Below, one piece after another: positions 2 to 31,784 of a DNA stretch of 32,000 nucleotides. The notes below the pieces were generated by a model. The model saw only the letters and a list, made by a program, of their open reading frames with translations, was not told the origin of the DNA and did not search any database. Numbering within the stretch: position 1 is the stretch's first letter; each line of letters starts with the position of its first letter. The position numbers and the translations under genes were made by a program. This DNA is from Nonlabens ponticola (GTDB lineage: Bacteria; Bacteroidota; Bacteroidia; Flavobacteriales; Flavobacteriaceae): positions 1,050,001 through 1,082,000 of the forward strand of contig NZ_CP034549.1 of NCBI RefSeq assembly GCF_003966335.1. Direction: 5' to 3'.

Positions 2-565
2 GTGGCGATGCAGCCAGCTGGCTACAGTGTGCAGCTCAATTCTTATAAGGACAGCAGTTTACAGGGCGATCGTGCACTGGTTGAGATATATGAGAAATTG
101 GGTGTGCAAACCACCTTTAATTTGACAGGAATCGTGCTCACGTGCATGACCGATTTTGAACCGCCGCACTATCTGGAATTTGATCTCACGTCACAACCTG
201 ATCAAGCGCAAACAATCTTTGCTACTTGTTTGGGGCTTGGTATCAATTTGAAAATGAAAGGTTTGCATACTCTTAGAATCAAAGAAACAGACCGTATAAA
301 GGCAATGGATGTTGTTGGGTCACGCTTTCGCGAAAGCAAAATTCTAACAACCACCGATACCATAGAAATAACATTCTCTCCAGATTCTAGCATTACACAA
401 GAGTTCATCGTGGACACCTACCAAGATCACCGTATGGCACTAGCCTTTGCACCACTATGCTGCAAGACGACCGTGATAATTAACGATGCAGATGTGGTTA
501 CTAAAAGCTATGGCGAGTATTATAAGGATCTGGCTGCCGTAAAGGTCGATATAACAGAAATTTAA
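2..565 (+). CDS. aroA: 3-phosphoshikimate 1-carboxyvinyltransferase (EPSP synthase), C-terminal fragment; the 5' end lies outside the window
   Basis: The ORF is open to the window edge. It has the C-terminal EPSP-synthase motifs LRIKETDRI and QDHRMALAFAPL. It carries palindrome copy 1, translated SRFRESK. Confidence 0.8.
   Translation: MAMQPAGYSVQLNSYKDSSLQGDRALVEIYEKLGVQTTFNLTGIVLTCMTDFEPPHYLEFDLTSQPDQAQTIFATCLGLGINLKMKGLHTLRIKETDRIKAMDVVGSRFRESKILTTTDTIEITFSPDSSITQEFIVDTYQDHRMALAFAPLCCKTTVIINDADVVTKSYGEYYKDLAAVKVDITEI
324..337. repeat. Iterated palindrome copy 1, GCTTTCGCGAAAGC
   Basis: Exact 14-mer inside aroA, read as CGC-TTT-CGC-GAA-AGC (RFRES). Confidence 0.97.
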
Positions 566-601
566 GCAGCGATTTACTTGACAACCCCTATGTCCAGATT
601 G

Positions 602-609
602 TATATTTG
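602..609 (+). promoter_or_regulatory. Bacteroidota-type -7 promoter box (TAnnTTTG) for queA
   Basis: TATATTTG, 25 nt before the ATG. Confidence 0.45.
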
Positions 610-633
610 CAACTCAAAAATTAAACGTATTTA

Positions 634-1686
634 ATGAAATTATCACAATTCGGTTACAAGCTCCCGGAAGAGTTTATCGCAAAATATCCAGCTGAAAATA
701 GGGATGAGTCAAAGCTGATGGTACTGCACAAGTCCACTGGTAAAATCGAGCACAAAGTCTTTAAGGACGTCATCGATTATTTTGACGAGAAAGACGTTTT
801 TGTGATGAATGATACCAAGGTTTTTCCTGCCAGATTATACGGTAACAAGGAGAAGACAGGTGCGCGTATTGAGGTGTTCCTTTTACGTGAATTGAACCCT
901 ACTACTAAGCTTTGGGACGTCTTAGTCGACCCAGCTAGAAAAATACGTATAGGTAATAAACTATACTTTGGCGAGGATGAGAGTCTGGTGGCTGAGGTTA
1001 TTGACAACACAACTTCAAGAGGTAGAACTTTACGTTTTTTATATGACGGTACTTATGAGGAGTTTAGAAAAAAGCTTAAGGATCTAGGTGAGACTCCATT
1101 ACCACGTGAGCTAGAACGTGAGGTAGAAGAATCAGATACTGAAAGATACCAGACCATTTATGCAGCAAATGAAGGAGCTGTCGCAGCGCCAGTTGCTGGA
1201 TTACACTTTTCTCGTCACTTATTGAAGCGACTAGAAATCAAAGGTGTCAATGTTGCTACGGTAACTATGCACATAGGCTTAGGAACTTTTGCTCCAGTTG
1301 AGGTTGAAGATCTTTCTAAGCACAAGATGGACAGCGAGCAAGCTTTTATTACAGAGCCTACGGTCGCGATGGTCAACGAGGCGATAGACAATAAGCGCAA
1401 CATTTGTGCGGTAGGTACGACTACCATGAGATCGCTTGAAAGTGCCGTAAGTAGTGACGGTCACTTGAATACGTACGAAGGCTGGACCAATAAATTTATC
1501 TTTCCGCCGTATGATTTCTCTATAGCAAATAGCATGATTACAAACTTTCACCATCCTAAATCTACTTTGATGATGCAGGCAGCTGCGTTTGCAGGTTATG
1601 ATTTCTTGAAGGAAGCTTATGATGTAGCGATGAAAGAGGGCTATAAGTTCAGTACGTATGGCGATGCTATGTTGATTTTAGAATAA
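634..1686 (+). CDS. queA: S-adenosylmethionine:tRNA ribosyltransferase-isomerase
   Basis: 350-aa ORF with a QueA-type N-terminus ([19 protein letters not shown]) and the C-terminal [11 protein letters not shown] motif. A TAnnTTTG box lies 25 nt upstream. Confidence 0.93.
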
Positions 1687-1710
1687 TATTTTATATACAG
1701 TGATAGTTAG

Positions 1711-1740
1711 AACCCTTTATGCAATAGTATAAAGGGTTTT
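1711..1740 (+). terminator. Putative intrinsic terminator after queA
   Basis: 10-bp stem AACCCTTTAT / ATAAAGGGTT with an 8-nt loop, followed by a short T run. It lies 25 nt after the stop. Confidence 0.5.
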
Positions 1741-1784
1741 ACGATTGCTTATTGTACCTTAACGTTCCCTATCTTCCTATAATT

Positions 1785-3514: not shown

Positions 3515-4570
3515 ATGACACCTATGACCAAAACGGATAAAAAGGACATACGAGCATTAACCCTTGAAGAGTTACGCGATTATTTCGTGTCAAATGGTGA
3601 GAAAGCCTTTCGTGGTAATCAGGTATATGAATGGTTGTGGAAAAAAGGTGCGCACACCTTTGATGACATGACTAACTTGTCCAAAAACACTCGAGCATTT
3701 CTCGATGAGCATTTTGTCATCAATCATATACGCGTTGATGACATGCAACGCAGTCAAGATGGTACGATAAAAAATGCCGTCAAGTTGCATGATGGTCTTA
3801 CGGTAGAATCTGTTCTTATTCCTACGGCAACTCGTACTACGGCATGTGTTTCCTCACAAGTGGGCTGTAGTCTCAATTGCGAATTTTGCGCTACGGCAAG
3901 ACTCAAACGCATGCGTAATCTCAATCCAGATGAAATCTACGATCAAGTGGTAGCTATTGATCAGCAAAGTAGGCTGTATCACAATATACCTTTATCCAAT
4001 ATCGTATTCATGGGAATGGGCGAGCCGCTCATGAATTACAAAAATGTGATCAAGTCAATTGACAAGATTACTGGTGATGACGGTCTTGCCATGTCGCCCA
4101 AACGCATCACCTTATCTACTAGTGGTGTGCCCAAGATGATAAAAAAACTAGCAGACGAGCGACCTAAATTTAATCTCGCTTTGAGCTTGCATAGTGCCAT
4201 TGATGAGAAACGAGTCAAGATCATGCCGTTCAATGAGCAGTTTCCGCTAGATGACATTAAGGATGCGCTCAAATATTGGTACGATAAAACAGGCACTAGA
4301 GTTACATATGAGTACGTAGTATGGAAAGGTATCAACGACACAAGAGAAGACGTGGATGCCTTAATCCAATTTTGCAAAGTGATTCCTTGTAAGGTGAACA
4401 TCATTGAGTACAATTCAATCGACGATGCACGATTTGAGCAAGCAGCGCCGCAGGCTATTGATATGTATCAAACAGCACTTGAAAATGCTCGTATAGTAGT
4501 CAATGTACGTCGCAGTCGCGGTAAGGATATTGATGCGGCATGTGGGCAGCTAGCCAATAAATCGTCCTAG
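3515..4570 (+). CDS. rlmN: 23S rRNA/tRNA (adenine-C2)-methyltransferase, radical SAM
   Basis: Radical-SAM cluster motif CSLNCEFC and C-terminal DIDAACGQL. The length (351 aa) and overall layout fit the RlmN/Cfr family. Confidence 0.93.
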   Translation: MTPMTKTDKKDIRALTLEELRDYFVSNGEKAFRGNQVYEWLWKKGAHTFDDMTNLSKNTRAFLDEHFVINHIRVDDMQRSQDGTIKNAVKLHDGLTVESVLIPTATRTTACVSSQVGCSLNCEFCATARLKRMRNLNPDEIYDQVVAIDQQSRLYHNIPLSNIVFMGMGEPLMNYKNVIKSIDKITGDDGLAMSPKRITLSTSGVPKMIKKLADERPKFNLALSLHSAIDEKRVKIMPFNEQFPLDDIKDALKYWYDKTGTRVTYEYVVWKGINDTREDVDALIQFCKVIPCKVNIIEYNSIDDARFEQAAPQAIDMYQTALENARIVVNVRRSRGKDIDAACGQLANKSS

Positions 4571-4586: not shown

Positions 4587-4604
4587 ACGCTTTCGCGAAA
4601 GCGT
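4587..4604. repeat. Iterated palindrome copy 2, extended to the 18-nt ACGCTTTCGCGAAAGCGT
   Basis: Exact palindrome in intergenic DNA, starting 17 nt after the rlmN stop. Confidence 0.97.
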
Positions 4605-4725: not shown

Positions 4726-5661
4726 ATGGAATTATTTGAAGAGAAATTCCGTCTCTCGATGGCATCTCGCATTGCACTACTTAATCGTATCACCTATTTC
4801 ATTGTCAACCGTAAGGGCAAGCAAATGCGTCCCATGTTCGTGTTTTTGGTGGCCAAAATGATAGGCGATGGACAGGTAAATGATCGCACCTATCGCGGCG
4901 CATCAGTCATTGAATTGATACACACCGCAACACTAGTTCATGACGACGTGGTAGATGATAGTTTAAAACGTCGTGGGTTTTTTAGTGTCAATTCACTTTG
5001 GAAAAACAAGATTGCCGTGCTTGTAGGTGACTACCTACTATCCAAGGGTTTATTGTTAAGTATTGATAACAAGGATTTTGATCTACTCCAGATTATCAGC
5101 GTCGCCGTGCGCGAGATGAGTGAAGGTGAATTGCTACAAATAGAAAAAGCACGACGCCTTGATATTACAGAGGATGTTTATTACGATATCATTCGCAAGA
5201 AAACAGCAACCCTTATCGCTGCCTGTTGCAGTCTAGGAGCCGCTGCGGTATCTCCAGAAAGTGATGATGTAGAGAAGATGCGAGAATTTGGCGAGCTCAT
5301 AGGCATTGCCTTCCAGATAAAGGATGATCTCTTTGATTATGGTAACCAGCGCATAGGTAAACCTACCGGTATCGACATCAAGGAACAAAAAATGACCTTG
5401 CCGCTAATTCATACACTCAACACGGTGAGCAATAAGGATAAACGCTGGTTGATCAATAGTGTCAAGCGCCACAATCGCGATAAAAAACGCGTGAGAGAAG
5501 TGATTGATTTTGTCAAGAATCATGGCGGCCTTGAATATGCCGTAGAGGTCATGATGGACTACAAGACTCGCGCTTTGGCTATTCTAGATACCTATCCAGA
5601 GTCAGAGTACAAGACCAGTCTTCATACGATGGTCGAGTATGTGATTGATCGTGATAAGTAG
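4726..5661 (+). CDS. Long-chain trans-polyprenyl diphosphate synthase (IspB-like)
   Basis: Aspartate-rich motifs LVHDDVVDD (FARM) and FQIKDDLFDY (SARM). The coordinates use the first ATG, but the conserved N-terminal helix continues in frame upstream with no canonical start codon (see finding). Confidence 0.85.
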   Translation: MELFEEKFRLSMASRIALLNRITYFIVNRKGKQMRPMFVFLVAKMIGDGQVNDRTYRGASVIELIHTATLVHDDVVDDSLKRRGFFSVNSLWKNKIAVLVGDYLLSKGLLLSIDNKDFDLLQIISVAVREMSEGELLQIEKARRLDITEDVYYDIIRKKTATLIAACCSLGAAAVSPESDDVEKMREFGELIGIAFQIKDDLFDYGNQRIGKPTGIDIKEQKMTLPLIHTLNTVSNKDKRWLINSVKRHNRDKKRVREVIDFVKNHGGLEYAVEVMMDYKTRALAILDTYPESEYKTSLHTMVEYVIDRDK

Positions 5662-5680: not shown

Positions 5681-5694
5681 GCTTTCGCGAAAGC
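5681..5694. repeat. Iterated palindrome copy 3, GCTTTCGCGAAAGC
   Basis: Exact 14-mer in intergenic DNA, 20 nt after the polyprenyl synthase stop. Confidence 0.97.
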
Positions 5695-9922: not shown

Positions 9923-9962
9923 TGAGATGTGATAGCTTTTCAACGGTGTTATGTTTGTGATA

Positions 9963-9986
9963 ATTACGCTTTCGCGAAAGCGTAAT
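9963..9986. repeat. Iterated palindrome copy 4, extended to the 24-nt ATTACGCTTTCGCGAAAGCGTAAT
   Basis: Exact 24-nt palindrome in intergenic DNA, 41 nt after the OM beta-barrel gene stop. Confidence 0.97.
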
Positions 9987-10695: not shown

Positions 10696-11397
10696 TTGAA
10701 TTCCCAACTACTCATTAAAGTCATCATTCCTGCATACAACGAGGCAGATAGCATAGGCCTGGTTATTAAGGATATTCCAAACGTTGTTGATGAGGTTATT
10801 GTGGTTTCAAATAACAGCACAGATACTACCGAAGCTACAGCTACCCAAGCTGGCGCGACAGTACTCAAAGAGAATAGACGTGGTTATGGTTTTGCCTGTT
10901 TGAAAGGCATGGATTATATCAGCCAGCAGGAAAACAAACCAGATATCGTGGTATTTCTTGATGGTGACTACAGTGATTATCCAGAGCAGTTGACTCAGAT
11001 AGTCGCACCAATTATTAATCAAGATATTGACTTTGTCATAGGTGCCAGAGATAAGAAATTAAGAGAAGCTGGTAGCATGACTGGACCACAGGTTTTCGGG
11101 AACTGGCTAGCGACTTCGCTTATGAAAATCATGTTCAACAGTAGGTTTACAGATCTAGGCCCATTCCGCGCGATAAAGTATGAGAAACTACTAGCGCTAG
11201 AGATGGAAGATCAAACCTATGGCTGGACGGTAGAAATGCAACTCAAAGCATTGAAGACAGGCTATTCTTACAAGGAAATCCCAGTCAAGTACCGCAATAG
11301 AATAGGCGTTTCTAAAGTATCAGGAACAGTCAAAGGTGCTATATTTGCAGGTGTTAAAATTTTAACATGGATATTCAAATACGGTCTTAAAAAATGA
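10696..11397 (+). CDS. Family-2 glycosyltransferase, small soluble type (polyprenyl-phosphate sugar synthase / DPM1-GtrB-like)
   Basis: N-terminal VIIPAYNE and a FLDGDYSD acidic motif; about 230 aa with a GT-A layout. The TTG start at 10696 sits 20 nt after a TATTTTTG -7 box and there is no ATG alternative. Confidence 0.75.
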   Translation: MNSQLLIKVIIPAYNEADSIGLVIKDIPNVVDEVIVVSNNSTDTTEATATQAGATVLKENRRGYGFACLKGMDYISQQENKPDIVVFLDGDYSDYPEQLTQIVAPIINQDIDFVIGARDKKLREAGSMTGPQVFGNWLATSLMKIMFNSRFTDLGPFRAIKYEKLLALEMEDQTYGWTVEMQLKALKTGYSYKEIPVKYRNRIGVSKVSGTVKGAIFAGVKILTWIFKYGLKK

Positions 11398-12881: not shown

Positions 12882-12882
12882 C

Positions 12883-14286
12883 ATGAAAGCCAGGCTGCAA
12901 AATGGCTTCGGCATTTTATTGATCCTTAGCTTTTTAGGGTACTCTTTCTTGAGCACGCTTTCGCGAAAGCAGTACTATCCAAGTCTTCTTACTTATATAG
13001 GTTTATTTGCGCTATTTCTAGCATTGTGCTGGATGGCCAAAACTGCTACCGAAAAAAGATGGGAACTATTTTCAGCCTGGTTAGGAAACTTTTTTAAGGC
13101 CAAATCATCCTTTGTGGCATGGCTGCTGGCTGGTGTTGTTTTGCGGTTAGTGCTCTTGTGGGTGACGCCATGGTTGTCGCAAGATTTTTTCAGGTTCATC
13201 TGGGATGGACACCTATCACTTAACGGCTTCAATCCCTATTTGTATTTACCCGACGATTTGATCGTATCAGGCGCAGATTTTATCCCAAATGCCGAGTTCC
13301 TGCACGCGTCCATGGGATCACTATCCAGCGGTCATTTTACTAACTATCCACCATTGAATCAATTTTTCTTTGCAGCAGCAGCCTATCTAGGCGGCGATAG
13401 TTTGCTGCATACGGTGATATGGATGCGCGTATTTATCATTTTGGCAGACGTCGTTACGTTTATCTACGGAATCAAACTCTTGCGATTATTGGGTAAACCA
13501 GACTGGTTGATCTTATTGTACTATTTGAATCCGTTTGTGATCGTAGAATTGACAGGAAACCTGCATTGGGAAGGCGTTATGGCTTGCTTCATGCTGATAG
13601 GTGTTTATCATTTTATATGCTATGATAAGTGGCGCAGCGGACTGTTTTTAGGTTTTGGCGTTTTGGTAAAATTGTTACCGGTGTTGGTTTTTCCTTTAGT
13701 GGTGCGGGCACGGAAATTCAAATGGATCGTACTGTTCTACATCACCGCTGCGGTAACGATCATCGCTGGATTTGCACCACTTGTTTCAGGTGAATTGATT
13801 GAAAAATACGCAGCATCGATTGGTTTGTGGTTTGGGACATTTGAGTTCAATGCGAGTATTTATTACGTCATTAGAGCGATTGGGTATGAGGTAACTGGTT
13901 ATAATATTATTGGTACGGTCGGTAAGATCTTGCCGCTAATTACTATTGCAGTAATAATCTTGTTATCGCTATTGCGTCAAAACAAGTATCCCGAAGTCCT
14001 GTTGACCAGTATTCTACTTGCTTTCACGACATATTTGTTGCTCTCGACCACTGTTCATCCATGGTATTTGACGATTCCGTTACTGTTTTCTTTGTTTACC
14101 CGGTATCGATTTATGGTGGTGTGGAGTTGTCTGGTTTTTGTGAGTTATTCTGCTTATGCAAACGCAGATTATAGTGAGAACTTCTGGTGGATTGGTCTGG
14201 AATATGGTGTGGTCCTTTTTATATGTATTTTAGAGCTGACAGGAAAGAGTATTTTTTCTGCCAGAACAAACCAACTAAACCGCTGA
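12883..14286 (+). CDS. Polytopic membrane protein, putative GT-C-fold (DUF2029/PMT-like) polyprenyl-phosphate-sugar-dependent glycosyltransferase
   Basis: 467 aa and highly hydrophobic, with 10 or more predicted helices. The first-loop motif SQDFFRFIWDGHLSLNGFNPY resembles the acidic loop of GT-C mannosyltransferases. There is a 1-nt gap to the upstream gene. It contains palindrome copy 5. Confidence 0.5.
   Translation: MKARLQNGFGILLILSFLGYSFLSTLSRKQYYPSLLTYIGLFALFLALCWMAKTATEKRWELFSAWLGNFFKAKSSFVAWLLAGVVLRLVLLWVTPWLSQDFFRFIWDGHLSLNGFNPYLYLPDDLIVSGADFIPNAEFLHASMGSLSSGHFTNYPPLNQFFFAAAAYLGGDSLLHTVIWMRVFIILADVVTFIYGIKLLRLLGKPDWLILLYYLNPFVIVELTGNLHWEGVMACFMLIGVYHFICYDKWRSGLFLGFGVLVKLLPVLVFPLVVRARKFKWIVLFYITAAVTIIAGFAPLVSGELIEKYAASIGLWFGTFEFNASIYYVIRAIGYEVTGYNIIGTVGKILPLITIAVIILLSLLRQNKYPEVLLTSILLAFTTYLLLSTTVHPWYLTIPLLFSLFTRYRFMVVWSCLVFVSYSAYANADYSENFWWIGLEYGVVLFICILELTGKSIFSARTNQLNR
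12957..12970. repeat. Iterated palindrome copy 5, GCTTTCGCGAAAGC
   Basis: Exact 14-mer inside the GT-C-like gene, read as CTT-TCG-CGA-AAG (LSRK). Confidence 0.97.
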
Positions 14287-14287
14287 T

Positions 14288-17253: not shown

Positions 17254-17257
17254 ATTC

Positions 17258-17665
17258 TTAGTTACTGCTCACGCCATTAAAATCTACCGTATGAATACAG
17301 TAATCGGTTCCTTCACTGCAATTAAAACTCAATTTTGTCCATGCGGTACCGCGCTTGCTTTCCAGCGCTATGCCATTGTCGGTGCGTTCTAGATTGAATA
17401 GGAAATCCGGCAGTTGATCCGTTGTATTTACTGGTGCCGTGGCTATTGACATACCGTAGGCGTCAATGGCCTGTGGCTGGAATTTGGCTTTGGTAAATGA
17501 CAATTTTGTCCAGGCACAACCTTCTTCACATTCTAATTCTATAGTATTGTCCTCGACAGATATAATGTTTATCTGGAAATCCTGTGAAACTTGTTTCTTG
17601 CTTTTCTTGGAGCCGCAACTTGCCATCAAGACTGCTGCAAGGACTACTAATATTATCTTTTTCAT
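17258..17665 (-). CDS. Small lipoprotein with an internal two-fold repeat (AWTKLSF motif)
   Basis: Lipobox MKKIILVVLAAVLMASCGS. Two units of about 45 aa each contain G-x-AWTKLSF. There is a 4-nt gap to the downstream GNAT/CN-hydrolase gene. Confidence 0.6.
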   Translation of the reverse strand: MKKIILVVLAAVLMASCGSKKSKKQVSQDFQINIISVEDNTIELECEEGCAWTKLSFTKAKFQPQAIDAYGMSIATAPVNTTDQLPDFLFNLERTDNGIALESKRGTAWTKLSFNCSEGTDYCIHTVDFNGVSSN

Positions 17666-17697
17666 GTTATTTTGTTTTTATGTTTTTTGGATGTTAC

Positions 17698-17711
17698 GCT
17701 TTCGCGAAAGC
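17698..17711. repeat. Iterated palindrome copy 6, GCTTTCGCGAAAGC
   Basis: Exact 14-mer in intergenic DNA, about 110 nt after the DHS-like stop and about 30 nt upstream of the lipoprotein start. Confidence 0.97.
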
Positions 17712-17819
17712 TGAATCCTCATCATCGCTTAAGCAAATCAATAAATCCTTATACCATCAAAATATTTTACTGCAAGTTGGCATCGTCTAATAATACCAAG
17801 TGTAGGAATACTTGAAAAT

Positions 17820-18803: not shown

Positions 18804-18836
18804 TTTTGCAAACGTGTTTATATTTTATATGAGAGG

Positions 18837-19775
18837 TTAATCCTCGTCAATATTTTTCATCTTTTTCAAGCCTTCTTTCGCGAAAGCGTTATCTGCATCA
18901 TAGCCATCTTCACCTTCTAGCGCGATGTCCTTAAATTTATAGCTGAGCATTTTGTAGTACAGTTTGGCCGCTAGAAAATCTGACGATTTCTCGTTAGGAT
19001 TGGGGCACAATTCAACAATGTCAAATCCTACCACATTTTTCTCCTCAAAAACGGATTTCAAGAAATCCAGCGTCTCATACCAGAACAAGCCGCCTGGCTC
19101 TGGTGTGCCAGTTGACGGCAAGATGGATGGATCAAACGCATCTAGATCGATGGTGATGAATACATTTTCAGTCAAGGCCTCGACTACCTTTTCTTGCCAG
19201 TAGTCATCCTGAGCCATATCGTGAGCATAGAATGTTTTTTCATCTTCATTGACGCCTAGCTCAATGCTATCCATGGAACGTATGCCTACCTGAACAAGAT
19301 TGGTGTTCTGGCTAGCTTCATAAACGGCACAAGCATGATTGCAGGTGCTGCCATCATATTCTTTGCGCAGGTCTGCATGTGCGTCAAGTTGCAAAACGCT
19401 CAAATTTTCAAACATCTCGCTAAAAGCTCTAATGCTCCCTATGGAAATGGAATGCTCGCCACCAAATAATGTTACAAACTTGTTGCGTTTGATGTATTTT
19501 TTGGTGGTTTGATGGACCGCATCGACCATGGCTTCTGGTGACGAATTCTCAGTTACAGCATCGGCAAGAAAAACGCCGTGTCTATAAACCTCGCTGTCGG
19601 TTTCAATATCATACAATTCCATATTGCGACTTGCATTCAGAAATGCTTCTGGACCTTTGTCAGCACCTTTTTGCCAGGTGCTGGTACCATCATAAGGTAC
19701 CGGAATTAAAACAATGGATGCGCTATCAAGTGCGGCAAATTCATCCTCAATGCCTGCATAATTGTTATTGCTCAT
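18837..19775 (-). CDS. speB: Agmatinase (ureohydrolase family)
   Basis: Mn-binding ureohydrolase motifs FGGEHSIS, LDAHADLR and TIDLDAFDPS. The acidic C-terminal tail carries palindrome copy 7 (NAFAKE). Confidence 0.9.
   Translation of the reverse strand: MSNNNYAGIEDEFAALDSASIVLIPVPYDGTSTWQKGADKGPEAFLNASRNMELYDIETDSEVYRHGVFLADAVTENSSPEAMVDAVHQTTKKYIKRNKFVTLFGGEHSISIGSIRAFSEMFENLSVLQLDAHADLRKEYDGSTCNHACAVYEASQNTNLVQVGIRSMDSIELGVNEDEKTFYAHDMAQDDYWQEKVVEALTENVFITIDLDAFDPSILPSTGTPEPGGLFWYETLDFLKSVFEEKNVVGFDIVELCPNPNEKSSDFLAAKLYYKMLSYKFKDIALEGEDGYDADNAFAKEGLKKMKNIDED
18875..18887. repeat. Iterated palindrome copy 7, 12-nt core CTTTCGCGAAAG plus C
   Basis: Exact 12-nt core; the left flank is T rather than G. 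It lies inside the speB tail, read on the minus strand as GCT-TTC-GCG-AAA (AFAK). Confidence 0.95.
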
Positions 19776-19825
19776 GGTAATAAATTATAAATCAGAGTAT
19801 TAAATATAATAAATGAGATTCAGGA

Positions 19826-21220
19826 TTATTGATATCCTAGGATTTCCAGCATTTGCTCAGAGCTTTGTTGCTCTTTAAAAACACGCGTGGTGATCGCTCC
19901 ATCGTCATCGCGGTCGATCAAGACATGTTTAGGTGCTGGTATCAAACAGTGCTGCAAGCCACCATAACCACCTATGGTTTCTTGATAGGCACCTGTGTTG
20001 AAAAAGCCCACATATAATGGCTTGTCCTTATGATATTTAGGTAAATAGATGGCGTTGATGTTCTGCTCGCTATTGTAATAATCATCGCTATCGCAGGTCA
20101 AACCGCCTAAAAGCACACGCTCGTATTCATCATTCCATCTGTTCAAGGGTAGCATGATAAAACGCTTTGAAATCGCCCAGGAATCGGGTAATGTGGTAAT
20201 AAATGAGCTATTGATCATGGACCATTTCTCACGGTCGTTTTGCTGTTTTTGATACAGGATTTTGTAGATCGCACCACCAGATTCTCCTACGGTAAAAGAT
20301 CCAAATTCCGTAAATAGATGTGGTACATCGACGCCAGCTTCATCGCAGACTTGCTTGATCTGGCTCACGATTTCTTCTACCATGTATGCATAGTCAAACT
20401 CAAATGCAAGGCTATTCTTGATAGGGAAACCACCACCAATATTAAGACTGTCTAGAGTAGGGCAAATCTTTTTCAATTGAATGTATACCTTCAAACACTT
20501 ATGCAGCTCATTCCAGTAATAAGCATTGTCGCGTATTCCTGTGTTGATAAAAAAGTGTAACATCTTGAGATTAACCTGATTATTTGGCTCAATCTGATTC
20601 TTGAAAAAGGTCAAAATGTTTTTATAACCTATGCCTAGACGACTGGTGTAGAATTCAAACTTGGGCTCTTCCTCGCTAGCGATGCGTATACCTACATTGA
20701 AATTGCTATCAGTTGCTTCAGTAAGTAGCGATAACTCTTCATAATTATCAATTACAGGAATACAGTTTTTCTGGCCGCTATCAATTAGGCTCGCAATGTT
20801 TTGAATGTAAAGATCACGTTTAAAGCCATTACAAATGACAAAGGTTTCATCGTTGATCTTTCCTTCTTTTTTGAGGCTTTGCACAATATTGATGTCAAAA
20901 GCACTGCTGGTCTCAATATGGATATCATTCTTGAGCGCCGTGTCTAGCACATGCTTGAAATGGGAACTTTTGGTGCAATAGCAGTAGTTGTAGGTGGCTT
21001 TGTAGTCCGCTTTCGCGAAAGCGGAATCAAACCAACCTTTTGCACGTTGAATATTGTCAGAAATTTTAGGCAAATAACTGAATTTCAATGGTGTGCCATA
21101 TTCCTCGACCAATTTCATGAGGTCTATGCCATGAAATTGTAGGTGCTTGTTTTGTAATTCAAATTCTTCTGTAGGAAAGTGATAGGTCTGATCTATGAGA
21201 TCTATGTATTTAGTATTCAA
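19826..21220 (-). CDS. speA: Arginine decarboxylase, type-III PLP (alanine-racemase-fold) enzyme, Bacteroidota type
   Basis: 464 aa with the PLP-Lys context YCYCTKSS and the glycine-rich NIGGGFP loop. TTG start (MNTKYIDL), with a TACATTTG box 46 nt upstream. It contains palindrome copy 8. Confidence 0.85.
   Translation of the reverse strand: MNTKYIDLIDQTYHFPTEEFELQNKHLQFHGIDLMKLVEEYGTPLKFSYLPKISDNIQRAKGWFDSAFAKADYKATYNYCYCTKSSHFKHVLDTALKNDIHIETSSAFDINIVQSLKKEGKINDETFVICNGFKRDLYIQNIASLIDSGQKNCIPVIDNYEELSLLTEATDSNFNVGIRIASEEEPKFEFYTSRLGIGYKNILTFFKNQIEPNNQVNLKMLHFFINTGIRDNAYYWNELHKCLKVYIQLKKICPTLDSLNIGGGFPIKNSLAFEFDYAYMVEEIVSQIKQVCDEAGVDVPHLFTEFGSFTVGESGGAIYKILYQKQQNDREKWSMINSSFITTLPDSWAISKRFIMLPLNRWNDEYERVLLGGLTCDSDDYYNSEQNINAIYLPKYHKDKPLYVGFFNTGAYQETIGGYGGLQHCLIPAPKHVLIDRDDDGAITTRVFKEQQSSEQMLEILGYQ
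21007..21024. repeat. Iterated palindrome copy 8, extended to the 18-nt CCGCTTTCGCGAAAGCGG
   Basis: Exact 18-nt palindrome inside speA, read as AFAK (SAFAKA). Confidence 0.97.
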
Positions 21221-24016: not shown

Positions 24017-24967
24017 CTAATCCTCAAACCTCACCGTACTCTGTCGCTCGCGATTCACGTGCAACTGGGTCACGTCAGGTCTTGAATAGTGTCCAACAGC
24101 GTCAAAATTCTGTCGTTCTTCATAGATCCTATTGAAATCCAGGGTTGCCGTTATGATTTCTTCTTTGCCTATTTGCGGTTCAATGATCCACTCGCCATCG
24201 GGTCCAGCGATACAACTACCGCCATTGGCTAGCACATCAGGACAATTTTGTAGAATTTCTTCCAGATGCAAAGTGTCTGATGGCAAATCGGATCGAGTCA
24301 TCATACTGCTTACTGACAGTACAAACGTGCGACCTTCACGAGCGATGAAACGTGTGATATCTCTCGTATTATGATCACTACCAGGCCAGCACGCCACGTG
24401 CAGATTGGTGCCTTGAGCATACATCGCAGCTCGTGGCAACGGCATCCAGTTTTCCCAGCAATTGAGTCCGCTCATGGTAAAGTCTTTCAACTTGTGCGTT
24501 ACCAGACCATGACCGTCACCTGGCGCCCAAGTTAATCGCTCGTCATAGGTAGGTTGCAATTTTCTGTGGCTGCTCTTGATTTCACCGTTCTGGTTGATGT
24601 ACACCATGCTCGCATAGATGCTGTGACCACCTCGATCTTGTGGTCGTTCGATCAGTCCTAAGTAGATGGCTATTTTGTTAGCTTTCGCGAAAGCACAAAC
24701 AGCATCCAGATCTCCTGCTTCTAGATCGACCGAGTTTAATACATACTGACGGTGCAACTCTTTGACCACGGTTTTATTCCAAGCAGCGCCATCAGTCAAG
24801 GCTAGCCAAAATGGATAACCAGGTAACAATGCCTCACCAAAAACCACGAGTTCCGCGCCCTTATTTTTTGCTTGTTGCAGGCTGTCCAAAATCTTTTCTA
24901 GAGTTGCTTTCTTGTTAAGCCATACAGGCGAAATCTGGGCTAGGGCAACGTTGATCTGTGAGTTCAT
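24017..24967 (-). CDS. Nitrilase (nitrilase-superfamily branch 1)
   Basis: Glu-Lys-Cys triad contexts VFGEALLPGYP, HRKLQPT and LNCWENWMP. Its start shares one nucleotide with the upstream UbiA stop (TAATG). It contains palindrome copy 9. Confidence 0.85.
   Translation of the reverse strand: MNSQINVALAQISPVWLNKKATLEKILDSLQQAKNKGAELVVFGEALLPGYPFWLALTDGAAWNKTVVKELHRQYVLNSVDLEAGDLDAVCAFAKANKIAIYLGLIERPQDRGGHSIYASMVYINQNGEIKSSHRKLQPTYDERLTWAPGDGHGLVTHKLKDFTMSGLNCWENWMPLPRAAMYAQGTNLHVACWPGSDHNTRDITRFIAREGRTFVLSVSSMMTRSDLPSDTLHLEEILQNCPDVLANGGSCIAGPDGEWIIEPQIGKEEIITATLDFNRIYEERQNFDAVGHYSRPDVTQLHVNRERQSTVRFED
24681..24694. repeat. Iterated palindrome copy 9, GCTTTCGCGAAAGC
   Basis: Exact 14-mer inside the nitrilase gene, read as AFAK (CAFAKA). 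Confidence 0.97.
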
Positions 24968-26026: not shown

Positions 26027-26965
26027 CTAAAAATTATAAACTACTTCCAGCTTATAATCCTTTAGAGCTTTTTCTGCTTTCTCTAGATCTTCGGTAAAAC
26101 CTAGGATGTAGCCACCACCACCAGAGCCGCAAAGCTTCAGGTAGTAATCACCTGTGTCCAGTCCTTTTTTCCACAGTGCGTGGAATTGCGTAGGTATCAT
26201 AGGTTTGAAATTGTCAAGAACAGTACGAGAAAGATGTTTTACATTACCAAATAATCCTTTGACATCACCGCTCAAGAAGTCATCTACACACAAGTCTGTG
26301 TACTTCACAAACTGATCTTTCAACATTTTACGGAATCCTTCTTTCTTCATGTTTTCCATGAAAATATTGACCATAGGTGCTGTTTCACCTGTCATTCCAG
26401 AATCCAACAGAAACACAGCGCCTTTACCAGTCGCCAATTGCGATGGGATGCCAGCTGGTTCAATATTGTCTTTACTATTTATAAGGATAGGCAAGCTCAA
26501 GTAACTGTTCAATGGATCCAATCCAGAGCTCTTGCCGTGGAAGAAACTTTCAATCTTGCCAAAAATCTCTTTAAGTGTCAATAGTCGCTCCCGAGTCAAA
26601 TTTTCAAGAACGGTGATTTTTTCTAGGGCGTATTTATCATAGATAGAGGCTACCAGCGCACCACTACTACCTACACCATAACCTTGTGGTATGCTGCTGT
26701 CAAAGTACATTCCTGCGTCAATATCTGCGCGCATGGATTGTACATTAAATGCTGGAAAATCAGGATCGCTGGCAGCTAGTTCTTCAATATGACCAGCCAG
26801 TCTTGCCAGGCTGCGATTAGAAGCTGCAGCGGTCTCGTCGAGCTCATCAGTAATCTTGAGAGCGCCGTTGTAAAAGTTATAAGGGATGGAAAGTCCTTTT
26901 GAGTCCTTAATTATCCCATACTCGCCGAACAACAAGATCTTTGAGTAAAAAAGTGGTCCTTTCAT
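26027..26965 (-). CDS. GHMP-family kinase of the mevalonate pathway (mevalonate kinase or phosphomevalonate kinase)
   Basis: GHMP ATP motif PQGYGVGSSGALVASI and N-terminal KILLFGEYGII. I prefer ATG 26965 (MKGPLFYSK), because the track start at 26998 would overlap the upstream gene by 20 nt. A rho-independent terminator follows. Confidence 0.8.
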   Translation of the reverse strand: MKGPLFYSKILLFGEYGIIKDSKGLSIPYNFYNGALKITDELDETAAASNRSLARLAGHIEELAASDPDFPAFNVQSMRADIDAGMYFDSSIPQGYGVGSSGALVASIYDKYALEKITVLENLTRERLLTLKEIFGKIESFFHGKSSGLDPLNSYLSLPILINSKDNIEPAGIPSQLATGKGAVFLLDSGMTGETAPMVNIFMENMKKEGFRKMLKDQFVKYTDLCVDDFLSGDVKGLFGNVKHLSRTVLDNFKPMIPTQFHALWKKGLDTGDYYLKLCGSGGGGYILGFTEDLEKAEKALKDYKLEVVYNF

Positions 26966-26978
26966 AGTAAAAATTCCT

Positions 26979-28037
26979 CTAGAGACGCGAAGCGCCATGA
27001 CCTAGTTGGTCACAAATATAATGTTCCTTCTGACAATAGGACGCTAATTTACTCTTAATCAATTCATCAACCTGATCTGCATACTCATCTGGATATAGCA
27101 TGTGTACGTTGGCACCTGCATCCAGTGTAAAACAAACAGGAACGCCGGTCTCCTTTCGGTAGGCCCAAATTTCCTCGATGATTGACAAGGTGTTAGGTTT
27201 CATCAGTATAAAGTAAGGATGAGAGGTCATCATCATGCTGTGCAAAGTCAAAGCTTCACTTTCCGTGATTTTAATAAAACTGTCATAGTCACCATCTTTC
27301 AAGGCTTTCTTAATACTGGTCAAGTTGTCGTGGGCTTGATGGAATCTCGCTTTCGCGAAAGCGTGCCCGTTCATCAGCTCATGACCTACCGTTGAGCTTA
27401 CCGTCTTCTCGCCCTTGTCCACTAACAAGATGGTATCACGGTAGTTCTCAAAATTCTCGTGTAGCAAATTCTCAACGTTCACCCCATAAAGATTGCTGCT
27501 GTCTGGCGTTTGCTCATGCTCGCCCCAAACCACCAACTGACCATCCAGACTGCGGCACGCACTACCAGAGCCTAACCTTGCTAGAAAGCTGGCTTTGGCT
27601 TTATCATGTTTTCCTCCTGTAAGCTGCTGCTCAAAGTCCATCAAGCAACTTGCCATCGCCGCCATGCTGCTCGCACTGCTGGCAATACCACTACTGTGTG
27701 GGAACGTATTTAATGTATCAATCTCAAACTTATAATTCTTGATCCATGGGCAATAAGGCGTAATGCGCTCAAAAAATTCGGCGATTTTAGGTTCAAAACT
27801 GGGCTTAGGCTCACCTTCATAAGAAATATGGAAACCATGCTGATCTGCTAGAGTTGCTTTGATACTCGTTTCTGTATGACAATTGTTAAGCGTGAAACTA
27901 ATCGACGGATTTGCTGGCAATTGCATACCATGCTTGCCCCAATATTTGACCAGCGCAATATTGGATGGCGCCTGCCATTTGGTCTTTAGTTTGTCTGCTA
28001 GTTGGATATCAGCTGTTAGGTGAAATTGTTGAGCCAC
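26979..28037 (-). CDS. mvaD: Diphosphomevalonate decarboxylase
   Basis: N-terminal APSNIALVKYWGK and GHMP motif FPHSSGIASSASS. The GTG start is 18 nt downstream of a TATCTTTG box. It contains palindrome copy 10. Confidence 0.9.
   Translation of the reverse strand: MAQQFHLTADIQLADKLKTKWQAPSNIALVKYWGKHGMQLPANPSISFTLNNCHTETSIKATLADQHGFHISYEGEPKPSFEPKIAEFFERITPYCPWIKNYKFEIDTLNTFPHSSGIASSASSMAAMASCLMDFEQQLTGGKHDKAKASFLARLGSGSACRSLDGQLVVWGEHEQTPDSSNLYGVNVENLLHENFENYRDTILLVDKGEKTVSSTVGHELMNGHAFAKARFHQAHDNLTSIKKALKDGDYDSFIKITESEALTLHSMMMTSHPYFILMKPNTLSIIEEIWAYRKETGVPVCFTLDAGANVHMLYPDEYADQVDELIKSKLASYCQKEHYICDQLGHGASRL
27348..27363. repeat. Iterated palindrome copy 10, 16-nt CGCTTTCGCGAAAGCG
   Basis: Exact 16-mer inside the diphosphomevalonate decarboxylase gene, read as AFAK (HAFAKA). 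Confidence 0.97.
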
Positions 28038-29366: not shown

Positions 29367-29431
29367 GAATTGATGCTTACTTAAGATTGGTTTTCATAAG
29401 GTTTGACTCTTATGAGCTTATAACGTTACAC

Positions 29432-29439
29432 CAAATATA
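29432..29439 (-). promoter_or_regulatory. -7 box (TAnnTTTG) for the MacB/FtsX permease gene
   Basis: The minus strand reads TATATTTG, 66 nt before the ATG. Confidence 0.35.
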
Positions 29440-29486
29440 GATTTTTTGAATTCGCGTTTGTGTGTTGGCATATTTTTTGGAAAACA

Positions 29487-29494
29487 TACCTTTG
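29487..29494 (+). promoter_or_regulatory. -7 box (TAnnTTTG) for the lipoprotein gene
   Basis: TACCTTTG, 15 nt before ATG 29509. Confidence 0.45.
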
Positions 29495-29508
29495 AAAAAA
29501 GCTACAAA

Positions 29509-30078
29509 ATGAAAAGATTTAAAATATTAGGACTTCTATTACTAACAATAGGAGCAGTATCATGTGAGTCAGATGACGATTTGCCAGAAGTTCAAGAAAT
29601 TGATCCTATCGTGATCACTTCAGATTCTAAGTTCAATGCTGGTGATGATGAATATGAAATTACAGGTGGTGTCGTGTCAAATGTTGCAACAAATGAAGGT
29701 GACCGATTTACACAACTCATATTTTTAGGCGATGGTCTGGAGTTCAATAGATTTGGGATTCAAGGTCGCGGTCCATTGGCACAGTTAGTGATTTATAATG
29801 ATATCAACGTGAGCAACATTGCCGGTACTTATGAATTAAGTTCTACTGCGGCAACTGGAACTGCGGTGATCGTGTATTCTGAGGATTTCAATGTAAACGG
29901 TAGTCAAGATGCAGACGGTCGTGCTACATCAGGAACTGTAATCATTGAACGAGTTGGTGAAAACCAGTACATCGTTAATGTTGAGGATGGAGAGACTGAA
30001 GGTGAGGACGCAGATGATGACGATGACAATGAAAGTTTTGATCTATTCTTTGATGGTGAAGTTTACGTGGTGAACTAA
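29509..30078 (+). CDS. Hypothetical lipoprotein with an acidic C-terminal region
   Basis: Lipobox MKRFKILGLLLLTIGAVSCES from ATG 29509. A TACCTTTG box at 29487-29494 lies inside the longer track ORF, so the 29446 start is rejected. A strong terminator follows. Confidence 0.6.
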   Translation: MKRFKILGLLLLTIGAVSCESDDDLPEVQEIDPIVITSDSKFNAGDDEYEITGGVVSNVATNEGDRFTQLIFLGDGLEFNRFGIQGRGPLAQLVIYNDINVSNIAGTYELSSTAATGTAVIVYSEDFNVNGSQDADGRATSGTVIIERVGENQYIVNVEDGETEGEDADDDDDNESFDLFFDGEVYVVN

Positions 30079-30100
30079 TCTATCTTCTTTAAGACTTATA

Positions 30101-30132
30101 AAAAATCCCGATCACTAGATCGGGATTTTTTT
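30101..30132 (+). terminator. Rho-independent terminator after the lipoprotein gene
   Basis: AAAAATCCCGATC-acta-GATCGGGATTTTT followed by a T run. It lies 23 nt after the stop. Confidence 0.8.
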
Positions 30133-30236
30133 ATGTTCAAACATGGTGTAAAAGATCATTTATAAGGTAGGTAGTTGTGCAAGGATAACGTTGCACATGA
30201 GTTATTTTTAAATCTTTAAAAATCTACCCGATATCC

Positions 30237-31784
30237 ATGAGCAATATCAAAGCAAAATCCGCATTAATTTCAGTATTTCACAAAGATGGTCTAGAGCCTA
30301 TTGTTAAGAAAATGAATGATTTAGGAATCACTATTTACTCTACTGGTGGTACTGAAAAGTTTATCACAGATCTAGGAATTCCCGTAACTCCTGTTGAAGA
30401 CGTGACCTCTTATCCATCCATTTTAGGCGGCCGAGTGAAGACATTGCACCCTAAAGTTTTTGGCGGTATTCTTAATCGTCGCGATCATGATGGAGACAAA
30501 GAACAGCTAACGGAATATGATATACCACAAATTGATATCGTCATCGTTGATTTGTATCCATTTGAAGATACCGTTGCGAGCGGTGCTAGTGAGCAAGATA
30601 TTATTGAGAAAATTGACATAGGTGGTATTTCGCTCATAAGAGCAGCCGCCAAAAATTTTAAGGACACACTCTGCGTAGCTACCATGCAGGACTATGGCAA
30701 ATTGCTGGATGTGCTAGAAAAAGGTTCTGGATCAACAACGCTGGATCAGCGCAAGGAATTTGCAACCACTGCCTTCAATGTGAGCTCCCATTATGACAGC
30801 GCGATTTATGAATACTACGCTGGTGACGCATTGGACAAATCTCTCAAGATAAGCGAGACCCATGTCATGCCACTGCGCTATGGTGAGAATCCGCATCAGA
30901 AAGGCTGGTTCTACGGTGATTTTGATCAGATGTTTATCAAGCATCATGGTAAAGCACTTTCTTATAACAACCTGCTAGATGTTGATGCTGCAGTAAATCT
31001 CATGAGCGAGTTTGTAAATGAGGCGCCAACTTTCGCCATATTTAAGCACAACAATGCTTGCGGCATAGCTCAACGTGAAACTATTGAACAGGCCTACGTA
31101 GATGCTTTGGCTGGTGATCCGGTGTCTGCTTTTGGCGGGATTTTGATAGCTAATACGGCTATAGATGCTGCGACTGCTAGCAAGATTCATGAGTTATTTT
31201 GCGAGGTTGTCATTGCGCCATCCTTCAACCCAGATGCATTGGAGATTTTAAAGGGCAAGAAAAATAGAATTATGCTGGAGCTTGTTGATGGTGCGCTTTC
31301 GCGAAAGCGTAACAACCCAACACCAGAGGTGCGATCATCGCTTAACGGCTATCTAGTTCAAGATCCTAACTTAAAAACAGACACCGTTGCAGATTTATCT
31401 ACCGCTACTGACTTAGAGCCGACTGCTGAGCAAGTAGAAGATTTATTATTTGCTTCTAAAATTTGTAAGCATACTAAATCAAATACTATCGTGCTGGTCA
31501 AGGATAAGCAATTGTGCGCCAGTGGTACTGGACAAACTTCTAGGGTTGATGCCTTGAATCAAGCGATTCATAAGGCAGAATCTTTTAAGTTTGATTTGCA
31601 AGGTGCTGTCATGGCAAGTGATGCATTTTTCCCATTTCCAGACTGTGTAGAGATAGCTGATAATGCAGGAATAAAAGCCGTAATCCAGCCAGGTGGATCT
31701 ATTAAAGATCAACTTTCTATTGATTATTGTAATAAAAACGGTCTAGCGATGGTTTTTACAGGTACAAGACACTTTAAACACTAG
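30237..31784 (+). CDS. purH: Bifunctional AICAR transformylase / IMP cyclohydrolase
   Basis: N-terminal MGS-like IMPCH domain (ALISVFHKDGL, STGGT) and a C-terminal AICARFT domain ending GTRHFKH. 515 aa. It contains palindrome copy 11. Confidence 0.95.
   Translation: MSNIKAKSALISVFHKDGLEPIVKKMNDLGITIYSTGGTEKFITDLGIPVTPVEDVTSYPSILGGRVKTLHPKVFGGILNRRDHDGDKEQLTEYDIPQIDIVIVDLYPFEDTVASGASEQDIIEKIDIGGISLIRAAAKNFKDTLCVATMQDYGKLLDVLEKGSGSTTLDQRKEFATTAFNVSSHYDSAIYEYYAGDALDKSLKISETHVMPLRYGENPHQKGWFYGDFDQMFIKHHGKALSYNNLLDVDAAVNLMSEFVNEAPTFAIFKHNNACGIAQRETIEQAYVDALAGDPVSAFGGILIANTAIDAATASKIHELFCEVVIAPSFNPDALEILKGKKNRIMLELVDGALSRKRNNPTPEVRSSLNGYLVQDPNLKTDTVADLSTATDLEPTAEQVEDLLFASKICKHTKSNTIVLVKDKQLCASGTGQTSRVDALNQAIHKAESFKFDLQGAVMASDAFFPFPDCVEIADNAGIKAVIQPGGSIKDQLSIDYCNKNGLAMVFTGTRHFKH
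31294..31309. repeat. Iterated palindrome copy 11, 16-nt CGCTTTCGCGAAAGCG
   Basis: Exact 16-mer inside purH, read as LSRK (ALSRKR). Confidence 0.97.

Follow-up and report, generated by a model that had tools for sequence, protein, structure and literature searches.

An iterated palindrome with strand-polar flanks in the Nonlabens clade, a candidate self-DNA signal of the HIP1 or uptake-sequence kind

A stretch of 32,000 nt from Nonlabens ponticola (contig NZ_CP034549.1, positions 1,050,001 to 1,082,000; hereafter the window) contains ten exact copies of a 14-base palindrome, GCTTTCGCGAAAGC, and no copy was found in 100 dinucleotide-preserving shuffles of the same DNA. The palindrome, below called the word, acts as a signal at the level of DNA and not as a peptide or an RNA. 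Once established, it stays letter-perfect across species whose silent sites are saturated. We consider it highly probable that this DNA-level signal is kept by selection or by a drive and that it arose by substitution. The complete explanation that we prefer, in which the word is a clade-specific self-DNA signal of the kind represented by HIP1 and the uptake sequences, is given just under an even chance. Its narrower part, a role specifically in uptake or recombination, is drawn from analogy with those systems and is proposed with somewhat less confidence.

A signal at the level of DNA

A sequence-only reading of the window had counted 11 copies and placed seven of them inside genes with an intact reading frame in every case, and a check of the open reading frames (ORFs) agreed. 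The eleventh copy consists of the exact 12-mer core CTTTCGCGAAAG at 18875 and is one-off as a 14-mer (TCTTTCGCGAAAGC). The remaining four copies are intergenic, which is an excess in a window that is 92.3% coding (at least 4 of 11 at 7.7% noncoding, P = 0.0075). The codon strings and frames given by that reading were all re-read as stated. GCT TTC GCG AAA (AFAK) occurs four times, in agmatinase, the arginine decarboxylase SpeA, a nitrilase-family CN-hydrolase and diphosphomevalonate decarboxylase (MVD); CTT TCG CGA AAG (LSRK) occurs twice, in a GT87 membrane protein and PurH; and TTT CGC GAA AGC (FRES) occurs once, in AroA. The host-gene names held as well, with Pfam assigning the domains Arginase, Orn_Arg_deC_N, CN_hydrolase, MVD-like_N plus MDD_C, and GT87, and with PDB sequence matches agreeing for PurH and AroA (EPSP synthase).

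The same reading had proposed that the pressure acts on the DNA word rather than on the peptides, and this was strongly supported by codon choice, by the codons of orthologues and by identity across species. The codons that make up the word are minority codons in this genome (TTC 29%, GCG 19%, TCG 7%, CGA 15% and CTT 14%), and the peptides AFAK, LSRK and FRES have no other occurrence in the 9,842 residues of the window ORFs. Where motif-free orthologues have part of the same peptide, they encode it with different codons. For example, DAFAKH in the SpeA of Winogradskyella has GCC TTT GCA AAG for AFAK, and many MVDs encode HPFAKE as CAT CCN TTT GCA AAA GAA. Among 86 pooled copies, the 57 coding ones were distributed over the three frames as 26, 16 and 15, and the other 29 were intergenic.

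Regions of 21.5 kb around purH were taken from related genomes for copy counts, namely from N. dokdonensis DSW-6 (L319), Nonlabens sp. Hel1_33_55 (L320) and three related assemblies (L321, L322 and L323) whose PurH is 78-81% identical to that of the window. The window PurH itself was 100% identical to a Nonlabens protein in NCBI. Between the window and Hel1_33_55, all 14 bases were identical at each of the four common coding sites (SpeA, nitrilase, MVD and PurH; P ~5e-7), compared to a background in eight common genes with a third-codon identity of 0.40-0.51 and full conservation of 2.6% of all 14-nt segments. The PurH site was exact in five of the six Nonlabens-clade genomes and one-off in the sixth, and a site in RodA was common to all five fetched clade regions. 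The codons adjoining the word at these two sites varied freely between genomes. The GT87 site was also exact in a metagenome contig (L107) with 72% nucleotide identity.

Flanks, spacing, decay and distribution

Among 76 independent copies taken from other loci, 88% had C at position -1 and 82% had G at position +15, which makes the word the 16-mer CGCTTTCGCGAAAGCG. Less strongly, the consensus extended to 22 bp, TTAC-GCTTTCGCGAAAGC-GTAA, and the 22-bp duplex form of the word is TTACGCTTTCGCGAAAGCGTAA. On either strand the 5′ flank was poor in C and rich in G and T; as symmetry requires, the 3′ flank was G-poor and A/C-rich. The fraction of C was only 0.03-0.12 at many flank positions in the 76 copies, and the GC skew fell from +0.49 at 11-20 nt to +0.21 at 21-30 nt and was near zero past 30 nt. 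The whole unit is about 75 bp long and consists of the palindrome and about 30 bp of strand-asymmetric composition on each side; the sequence-only reading had treated the word alone as the unit, and the extension of about 30 nt per side was found here. A skew score of the flanks was positive at 93% of the 86 sites, with a mean of 7.0 compared to -0.02 +/- 4.5 at random positions. The skew did not depend on the strand of the gene or on which of the three frames was used, spacers showed it to the same extent, and it was absent around chance occurrences of the word in high-GC contigs. Since it flips at the motif, and does so in spacers as well, codon usage cannot explain it. T also recurred every 3 nt, at -4, -7, -10 and -13, and the simplest reading is that these are third codon positions in the commonest frame.

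In the window, the skew scores were 12 at SpeA, 12 at MVD, 8 at the nitrilase and 6 at GT87, compared to averages of 1.3-3.5 at the aligned positions of motif-free orthologues. The window value was reached by none of 79 SpeA and none of 34 MVD motif-free orthologues, which shows that the flanks evolved together with the word. When only the plain C and G content of the flanks was compared between the window and the orthologues, the result looked negative, and the difference appeared with the skew score. The flanks have composition in common, but neither sequence nor specific complementarity. Specific inverted repeats in the flanks were rejected, as true pairs folded at -13.75 and mismatched pairs at -13.44 kcal/mol (P = 0.55) and the flanks did no better than random genomic ones. 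The skew did influence the predicted fold in that the core was more often located at the apex (10.2 compared to 6.9 enclosing pairs).

The copies were spread more evenly than expected. Over 46 spacings the minimum was 868 bp and the coefficient of variation 0.51; random placement gave 0.90, and the observed evenness was not matched in any of 5,000 simulations; for the window alone the evenness gave P = 0.003. The 29 intergenic copies among the pooled 86 were an excess over an assumed intergenic fraction of 10% (P = 2e-9). They were located in tandem, convergent and divergent contexts, with a median distance of 67 nt to gene ends and 137 nt to gene starts.

In a set ascertained for at least two exact copies, 90 copies were exact, 12 had one mismatch and 6 had two. 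Of the 12 one-offs, nine were C-to-T or G-to-A changes at the CpGs of the word, mostly at C6 and G9, and a symmetric double variant, GCTTTTGCAAAAGC, was seen twice. Because the decay was mostly C-to-T there, it suggests that the inner CpG cytosine of the word is methylated. In the window together with the five purH regions (139.7 kb), there were five variants within two mismatches compared to 32 exact copies. The closest relative outside Nonlabens, an uncultured Flavobacteriaceae metagenome-assembled genome (MAG; L001), had four exact and three decayed copies (6475, 10199 and 17520) in 21 kb, and all of the decay was due to CpG transitions. Its SpeA site was one-off (TTC to TTT) and its MVD site two-off by two synonymous CpG transitions. 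It also had a copy in the spacer that corresponds to the intergenic site at 17698..17711 in the window.

In the Nonlabens clade, the word occurred roughly once per 3-4 kb, in genes and in spacers. The purH regions of DSW-6 and Hel1_33_55 contained five and six exact copies, and those of L321, L322 and L323 contained five, three and three, corresponding to 0.14-0.28 copies per kb in the five regions. Together with the window they form an unbiased sample of the clade with 0.23 copies per kb, although the purH-region loci are mutually orthologous, and partly also orthologous to the window, and are thus not independent samples of density. The over-representation in this sample was ~1e5-fold compared to the expectation from base composition, a value for the sampled regions and not for whole genomes, and extrapolation of 0.23 copies per kb to genomes of 2.9-3.9 Mb gave ~650-900 copies. 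In the same 139.7 kb, 32 of the 34 TTCGCGAA octamers reached the full 14-mer. An explanation by NruI-type (TCGCGA) restriction was rejected, as the host showed no avoidance of TCGCGA outside the word (35 seen, 21 expected).

Outside the clade, the word was absent from 78 of 80 other Flavobacteriaceae loci around speA. Multiple copies were found solely in L001, with four, and a single copy was found in one Leeuwenhoekiella MAG. The latter copy (L003, 11610-11623) is exact and located in a membrane protein (..YSLSRKRLG..), and the aligned place in two other Leeuwenhoekiella loci (L002 and L006) has the near-matches GCTTTCGCGGAAGC and GCTTTCGCAAAAAC. It could be a relic, a chance near-match or the result of a transfer. 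No copies were present in two outgroup purH regions, one from Maribacter and one on a contig with a Muricauda/Flagellimonas-type PurH. Scans of metagenome and viral sequences returned about 30 more multi-copy marine loci with a GC content of 0.33-0.47. The idea that each of the other Flavobacteriaceae has an iterated palindrome of its own was rejected, as the repeats of six such loci (L054, L074, L062, L038, L039 and L075) were ordinary longer repeats, hairpins and tandem arrays. They include a ~70-nt repeat containing CCCGATAGCTATCGGG in an Arenibacter MAG (L054; 4422 and 13136), a repeat containing TCGCAATGACGTCATTGCGA in L074 (11464, 14840 and 18866), hairpins AGACCTCACAGGT..ACCTGTGAGGTCT in L062 (15655-20182) and a 41-nt tandem array in an Aquimarina locus (L039; 16704-16909).

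Prophage-like contigs from IMG/VR, which encode portal, capsid, protease, tape-measure and endolysin proteins, carried three copies per ~12 kb, some of them inside structural genes. The G/C flank skew was 3.6 in the prophage copies compared to 7.8 in the cellular copies. For the portal protein of one viral contig (L289) no close cultured phage was found. Conservation among metagenome and viral loci was left out, since both members of each pair had been ascertained via the word. The cultured Nonlabens phage P12024S (JQ823122, L326, 35.7 kb) had no copy and none within two mismatches, compared to 8-12 expected at host density. Its annotation lists no integrase, and we take the phage to be lytic. 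The absence of the word from P12024S indicates that the word accumulates in resident DNA rather than in any DNA replicating inside the cell. The phage also lacks TCGCGA (0 seen, ~3.7 estimated from base composition) and encodes a DNA methyltransferase at 32699-33376.

Another palindrome, TTCGAA, was near-absent from the 139.7-kb sample (2 seen, 44.7 expected) and scarce in P12024S (1 seen, ~12 estimated from base composition). This scarcity looks like the avoidance of a restriction site of the AsuII/BstBI type. The iterated word contains TTCG-CG-AA, which is TTCGAA with CG inserted. GGGCCC, GTCGAC, TCCGGA and CCCGGG were 5-10-fold low in the Nonlabens-clade hosts.

Table 1. Copies of the word in the window, with their genes or surroundings.
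Copy	Coordinates	Match	Gene or context	Codons, peptide or other remark
aroA	324..337	exact 14-mer	ORF 2-565 (+)	TTT CGC GAA AGC = FRES (..GSRFRESK..); 5′ side G/T-rich, 3′ side A/C-rich
intergenic	4589..4602	exact 14-mer in 18-bp palindrome ACGCTTTCGCGAAAGCGT	18 nt past the stop of an rlmN-like gene (3515-4570)	
intergenic	5681..5694	exact 14-mer	19 nt past the stop of a polyprenyl synthetase-like gene (4726-5661)	
intergenic	9962..9985	exact 14-mer (9968-9981) in perfect 24-bp palindrome ATTACGCTTTCGCGAAAGCGTAAT	45 nt past the stop of a gene for a 923-aa outer-membrane protein	
GT87 (GT-C fold) membrane protein	12957..12970	exact 14-mer	gene 12883-14286 (+)	CTT TCG CGA AAG = LSRK
intergenic	17698..17711	exact 14-mer	between the stop of a deoxyhypusine-synthase-like gene (17820-18803, -) and the start of a 135-aa lipoprotein gene (17258-17665, -)	
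agmatinase, C-terminal tail	18874..18887	one-off TCTTTCGCGAAAGC, 12-mer core exact	gene 18837-19775 (-)	GCT TTC GCG AAA = AFAK
speA (arginine decarboxylase)	21009..21022	exact 14-mer, 16-mer with flanks	gene 19826-21220 (-)	AFAK-A
CN-hydrolase (nitrilase family)	24681..24694	exact 14-mer	gene 24017-24967 (-)	C-AFAK-A
diphosphomevalonate decarboxylase (MVD)	27349..27362	exact 14-mer, 16-mer	gene 26979-28037 (-)	H-AFAK-A
purH	31295..31308	exact 14-mer, 16-mer	gene 30237-31784 (+)	GCG CTT TCG CGA AAG CGT = ALSRKR

The copies are listed in Table 1. Three of them are inside a polyamine cluster at 15718-21220, which comprises the genes for arginine decarboxylase and agmatinase and the deoxyhypusine-synthase-like gene. 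The cluster also has a 511-aa ORF (15718-17253) whose translation, inspected by eye, looks like a carbon-nitrogen hydrolase fusion. A 245-aa antisense ORF at 12219-12956 (-) is probably spurious; it overlaps the 3′ part of a 495-aa gene (11394-12881) as well as the first 74 nt of the GT87 gene. The MVD ORF overlaps a mevalonate kinase-like ORF (26027-26998) by 20 nt.

Origin of the copies and competing explanations

The sequence-only reading had suggested scoring each site as an indel or as a same-length substitution. This was done with protein and codon alignments to motif-free orthologues for SpeA, nitrilase, MVD and GT87, and by comparing RodA with two outgroups. At all five sites the length was the same. 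The ancestral A-I/F-x-K-H of SpeA (80 orthologues) had become AFAKA, C-K-L-A-K-E of the nitrilase (12 orthologues) had become CAFAKA, H-P-F-A-K-E of MVD (35 orthologues) had become HAFAKA, D-L-E-R-T-D of GT87 (34-35 orthologues) had become TLSRKQ, and L-I-K-R-K-K of RodA had become LLSRKR. The length at the AroA site differed by at most one residue from solved EPSP synthases, and the PurH and agmatinase sites were ambiguous. The ancestral peptides were already close to a translation of the word (DAFAKH, HPFAKE, CKLAKE and LIKRKK), and several non-synonymous changes were needed in which conserved residues were overridden. In SpeA, the word removed a His after the Lys that is near-invariant among the aligned orthologues shown, and in MVD it removed the widely conserved Pro of HPF/HPY. 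The sites had been described as surface or linker positions. This description suits the agmatinase tail, the PurH loop and the RodA tail, but not SpeA and MVD, where conserved residues were overwritten, nor the nitrilase, where the copy sits within the catalytic domain. The loss of the His and the Pro thus showed that the sites are not all tolerant linkers.

The two ambiguous sites bear on the possibility that the word is a miniature mobile or inserted element, an in-frame unit of 12-18 nt similar to REP/REPIN elements, miniature inverted-repeat transposable elements (MITEs) or Rickettsia palindromic elements. The PurH loop with the word is exactly six residues (18 nt) longer than in Maribacter, Flagellimonas and Cellulophaga, and the six extra codons coincide with the site, where the 18-nt ALSRKR segment holds the whole 16-mer. 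The loop is about as long in non-flavobacterial PurH structures as in Nonlabens, however, so that a deletion in the outgroups is as possible as an insertion. In agmatinase, the copy is located in a C-terminal tail that varies in length in the orthologue alignment (aa 297-300, beyond the Arginase domain, which ends at aa 277), and the enrichment in spacers would also agree with an inserted element. As a general mechanism, insertion was refuted by the same-length sites, where part of the word was already present in the ancestral sequence. The flanks are alike in composition only, and 64-66% of the copies are genic, unlike REP or MITE copies. We consider an inserted element very improbable. The alignments indicate that same-length substitution is the general route, and an insertion may have occurred at one or two sites (PurH and agmatinase).

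Selection on the peptides or on an RNA structure such as an mRNA hairpin or a terminator has a practically negligible probability. The word can form a hairpin of 5-6 bp, and the spacer copies are nearer to gene ends than to gene starts. Selection on the peptides is contradicted by the codon and orthologue data, as three unrelated peptides in unrelated proteins always use the same minority codons and motif-free orthologues have other codons and other residues. In genes the word occurs in both orientations, it is also present in divergent promoter regions, the flanks give no gain in predicted fold stability, and an Rfam search of the window returned no match. An intrinsic (bidirectional) terminator was rejected, as the downstream flank is A/C-rich (T 0.23-0.32), with A and not T enriched, most copies are genic, and the spacer copies occur in all gene configurations.

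A binding site for a chromosome-organising protein is a rather unlikely alternative. The protein could be ParB/Noc-, SlmA- or MatP-like or a new nucleoid protein, a dimer wrapping or spreading over ~75 bp, with the evenly placed sites structuring the nucleoid. The perfect palindrome of 14-16 (to 22) bp with its all-or-none use, the over-even spacing, the long-term conservation of orthologous sites, the sharp, footprint-like end of the flank property at ~30 nt and the absence of the word from a lytic phage all agree with such a protein. The length of the palindrome fits the 14-16 bp of ParB/Noc-type sites, but the ~650-900 copies extrapolated here are far more than in the known site-specific nucleoid and partition systems, which have from a few to ~100 sites per genome. 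The half-site TTTC-N|N-GAAA appears to be 2 bp tighter than in parS or NBS. There is also no obvious reason for a near-host density of the word in prophage structural genes, and a strand-polar flank, C-poor at the 5′ side on each strand, is unusual for the footprint of a duplex-binding protein. HIP1 offers a precedent, since a nucleoid function is the reading favoured by Xu et al. (PMC5861425).

A mutational ratchet without any function is, in our judgement, unlikely. An orphan methyltransferase and a Vsr-like short-patch repair nuclease would together turn near-matches into exact copies and restore damaged ones, and repeated nicking with resynthesis of ~30 nt would expose the template strand and write the skew. 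This is the model of Elhai for HIP1 (PMC4390886), which is discussed in PMC5861425. It is consistent with the all-or-none distribution with few intermediates that are two or three mismatches off, with synonymous positions that were restored or kept, with decay that is mostly at CpG, with a flank geometry and a ~30 nt range that fit a short excision patch on the 5′-ended strand, and with the weaker skew of the prophage copies, which are presumably younger. A ratchet predicts random placement, however, and leaves the over-even spacing and the lack of any pair closer than 868 bp unexplained. Moreover, the variants seen most often are the very deamination products that repair of this kind should eliminate, and creation of the MVD site from ~9 of 14 matches (counted by hand) needed several non-synonymous changes at conserved residues. 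We also know of no precedent for a repair nuclease that recognises a context of 14-16 bp.

The explanation we prefer is that the word is a self-DNA signal. Since the 16-22 bp perfect palindrome is used all-or-none, its reader would be a dimeric protein that binds or modifies DNA in a sequence-specific manner. The word would mark resident DNA as self and would promote the uptake and/or the recombination of DNA from the same species. On this view, one copy would be needed per fragment of a few kb, and selection, or the molecular drive that results, would maintain the word. The flanks may have arisen because the motif is nicked or cut and ~30 nt of the 5′-ended strand are removed, which would expose the complementary strand to deamination; on this strand, with its 3′ end toward the motif, C to T and A to G deamination would extend over ~30 nt. 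The weaker skew in prophages fits a footprint that grows with residence time. Alternatively, a protein with a preference for G/T-rich single strands ending at the motif would produce the same geometry.

Several points weigh against the self-DNA signal or against parts of it. Its functional part is an argument by analogy, and the even spacing, the conservation and the absence from a lytic phage are equally expected for the sites of a chromosome-organising protein. To our knowledge, no competence has been documented in Nonlabens, and Flavobacterium johnsoniae could not be transformed in PMC7965970. The flank skew includes a gain of G and a loss of A besides the loss of C, which could reflect selection for a flank preference instead of a mutational footprint. 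Because the pooled loci from metagenomes and viruses were picked for at least two copies, their density and their ratio of exact to one-off copies are biased upward. In L001, SpeA and MVD kept the AFAKA imprint after the DNA word had decayed by synonymous CpG transitions, so maintenance is not universal. An imprint without the exact word implies that maintenance was relaxed in the L001 lineage and that the peptide outlives the word, and this lineage is a natural contrast for finding the cognate gene. Finally, the DNA uptake sequences (DUS) of Neisseria and the uptake signal sequences (USS) of Pasteurellaceae are asymmetric 9-12-mers, compared to a perfect palindrome of 14-16 bp in Nonlabens.

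Neither the word nor any iterated palindrome of Flavobacteria or Bacteroidetes was described in the literature found by full-text searches, and the same was true of palindromes and methylomes of Nonlabens. It is possible, though doubtful, that this is the first HIP1- or DUS-like iterated word reported in Bacteroidota, a 16-22 bp palindrome within a ~75-bp unit whose flanks are the footprint of motif-directed strand processing. If the flanks are such a footprint, they would record the mechanism by which the motif is read and would provide a handle on how iterated palindromes are read and propagated, a question that has been open for HIP1 for ~30 years. Hyper-abundant words of the HIP1 and DUS/USS type are rare and show that forces at the level of DNA can prevail over the constraints of protein and codon. 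Comparative tests become possible with a second, independent system in another phylum, and the longer word is unambiguous. Nonlabens offers cultured hosts with complete genomes (N. dokdonensis DSW-6, CP001397, and Hel1_33_55, LT627735), cultured phages and the flank signature. The word is also a marker for Nonlabens-clade DNA and prophages in metagenomes and, if it promotes transformation as methylated HIP1 does, it could aid genetics in marine flavobacteria.

Comparison with known systems

REP/REPIN-RAYT systems and Rickettsia palindromic elements are repeated palindromes too, and the Rickettsia elements can sit in frame in genes. They differ in being insertions of 20-150 nt that add length, and REPs are mostly extragenic. 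The Nonlabens copies have only 14-22 nt in common, added no length at five sites, share no flank sequence and are 66% genic.

Chi sites (RecBCD/AddAB) resemble the word in being over-represented at about one per few kb, in occurring in genes and in marking resident DNA. The likeness extends to G/T-rich sequence 5′ of the site on the strand that would become the 3′ tail. GT-rich islands had been claimed around Chi and were then put down to codon usage, according to references listed in PMC3763553. In Nonlabens, the flank skew changes sign at the motif and is seen in spacers too, so it is no codon-usage effect. Chi is an asymmetric sequence of 5-8 nt that is co-oriented with replication and read as single-stranded DNA, in contrast to the long palindrome in Nonlabens, which has no orientation.

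The transformation motif of Campylobacter jejuni is RAATTY, and the enzyme is CtsM. It is, like the Nonlabens word, a palindromic motif, and it marks self DNA for uptake, as cited in PMC7965970. It differs in being a 6-mer that is not hyper-abundant, and self is discriminated by methylation rather than by the frequency of the word; the CpG decay observed here hints at methylation.

HIP1 (GCGATCGC) and the alternate HIPs of cyanobacteria are, like the Nonlabens word, palindromic, hyper-abundant and lineage-specific. They are found in all frames of genes and in spacers, spread by nucleotide substitution, are conserved at orthologous sites above background and have a non-random distribution on the chromosome. 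They contain CpG and are a possible target of methylation, and their function is unsettled, with nucleoid structure, uptake and recombination having been considered. PMC5861425 describes HIP1 sites as conserved by selection and non-randomly spaced. HIP1 raised transformation efficiency in a methylation-dependent, Chi-like or uptake-like manner according to one preprint (10.1101/2024.09.10.611283), and it was proposed as an uptake sequence in a 2026 preprint (10.64898/2026.06.24.733823). The Nonlabens word shares with HIP1 the over-representation, the occurrence in all frames and in spacers and the conservation of sites, but it is not HIP1 itself, since both the word and the phylum differ. HIP1 has 8 bp, whereas the word in Bacteroidota has 14-16 bp with a consensus to 22. 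The word has a lower density (~0.23-0.34 per kb) and a far higher over-representation, and it shows short-range evenness where HIP1 has a periodicity of 10-90 kb. A strand-polar flank of 30 nt is not mentioned for HIP1 in the parts of these sources that were available.

DUS and USS are likewise specific to a genus or family, with one word per few kb in genes and in spacers. Both an uptake bias and a receptor have been demonstrated for them. They share with the Nonlabens word the peptide imprints at tolerant or pre-adapted positions, the build-up by point substitution in resident DNA, the enrichment just downstream of genes and a core with a weaker flank requirement. The clade-specific density and the over-even spread in Nonlabens agree with an uptake sequence, but the palindromic core does not. 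Part of this background on DUS and USS comes from PMC7965970, in which Riemerella columbina, placed in Flavobacteriaceae, preferred its own DNA in transformation and no uptake word was identified. The closest known phenomena are thus the cyanobacterial HIP1 and the DUS and USS uptake sequences. The Nonlabens word behaves in a HIP- and DUS-like manner, but it does so in another phylum, with a much longer palindromic core and with asymmetric flanks.

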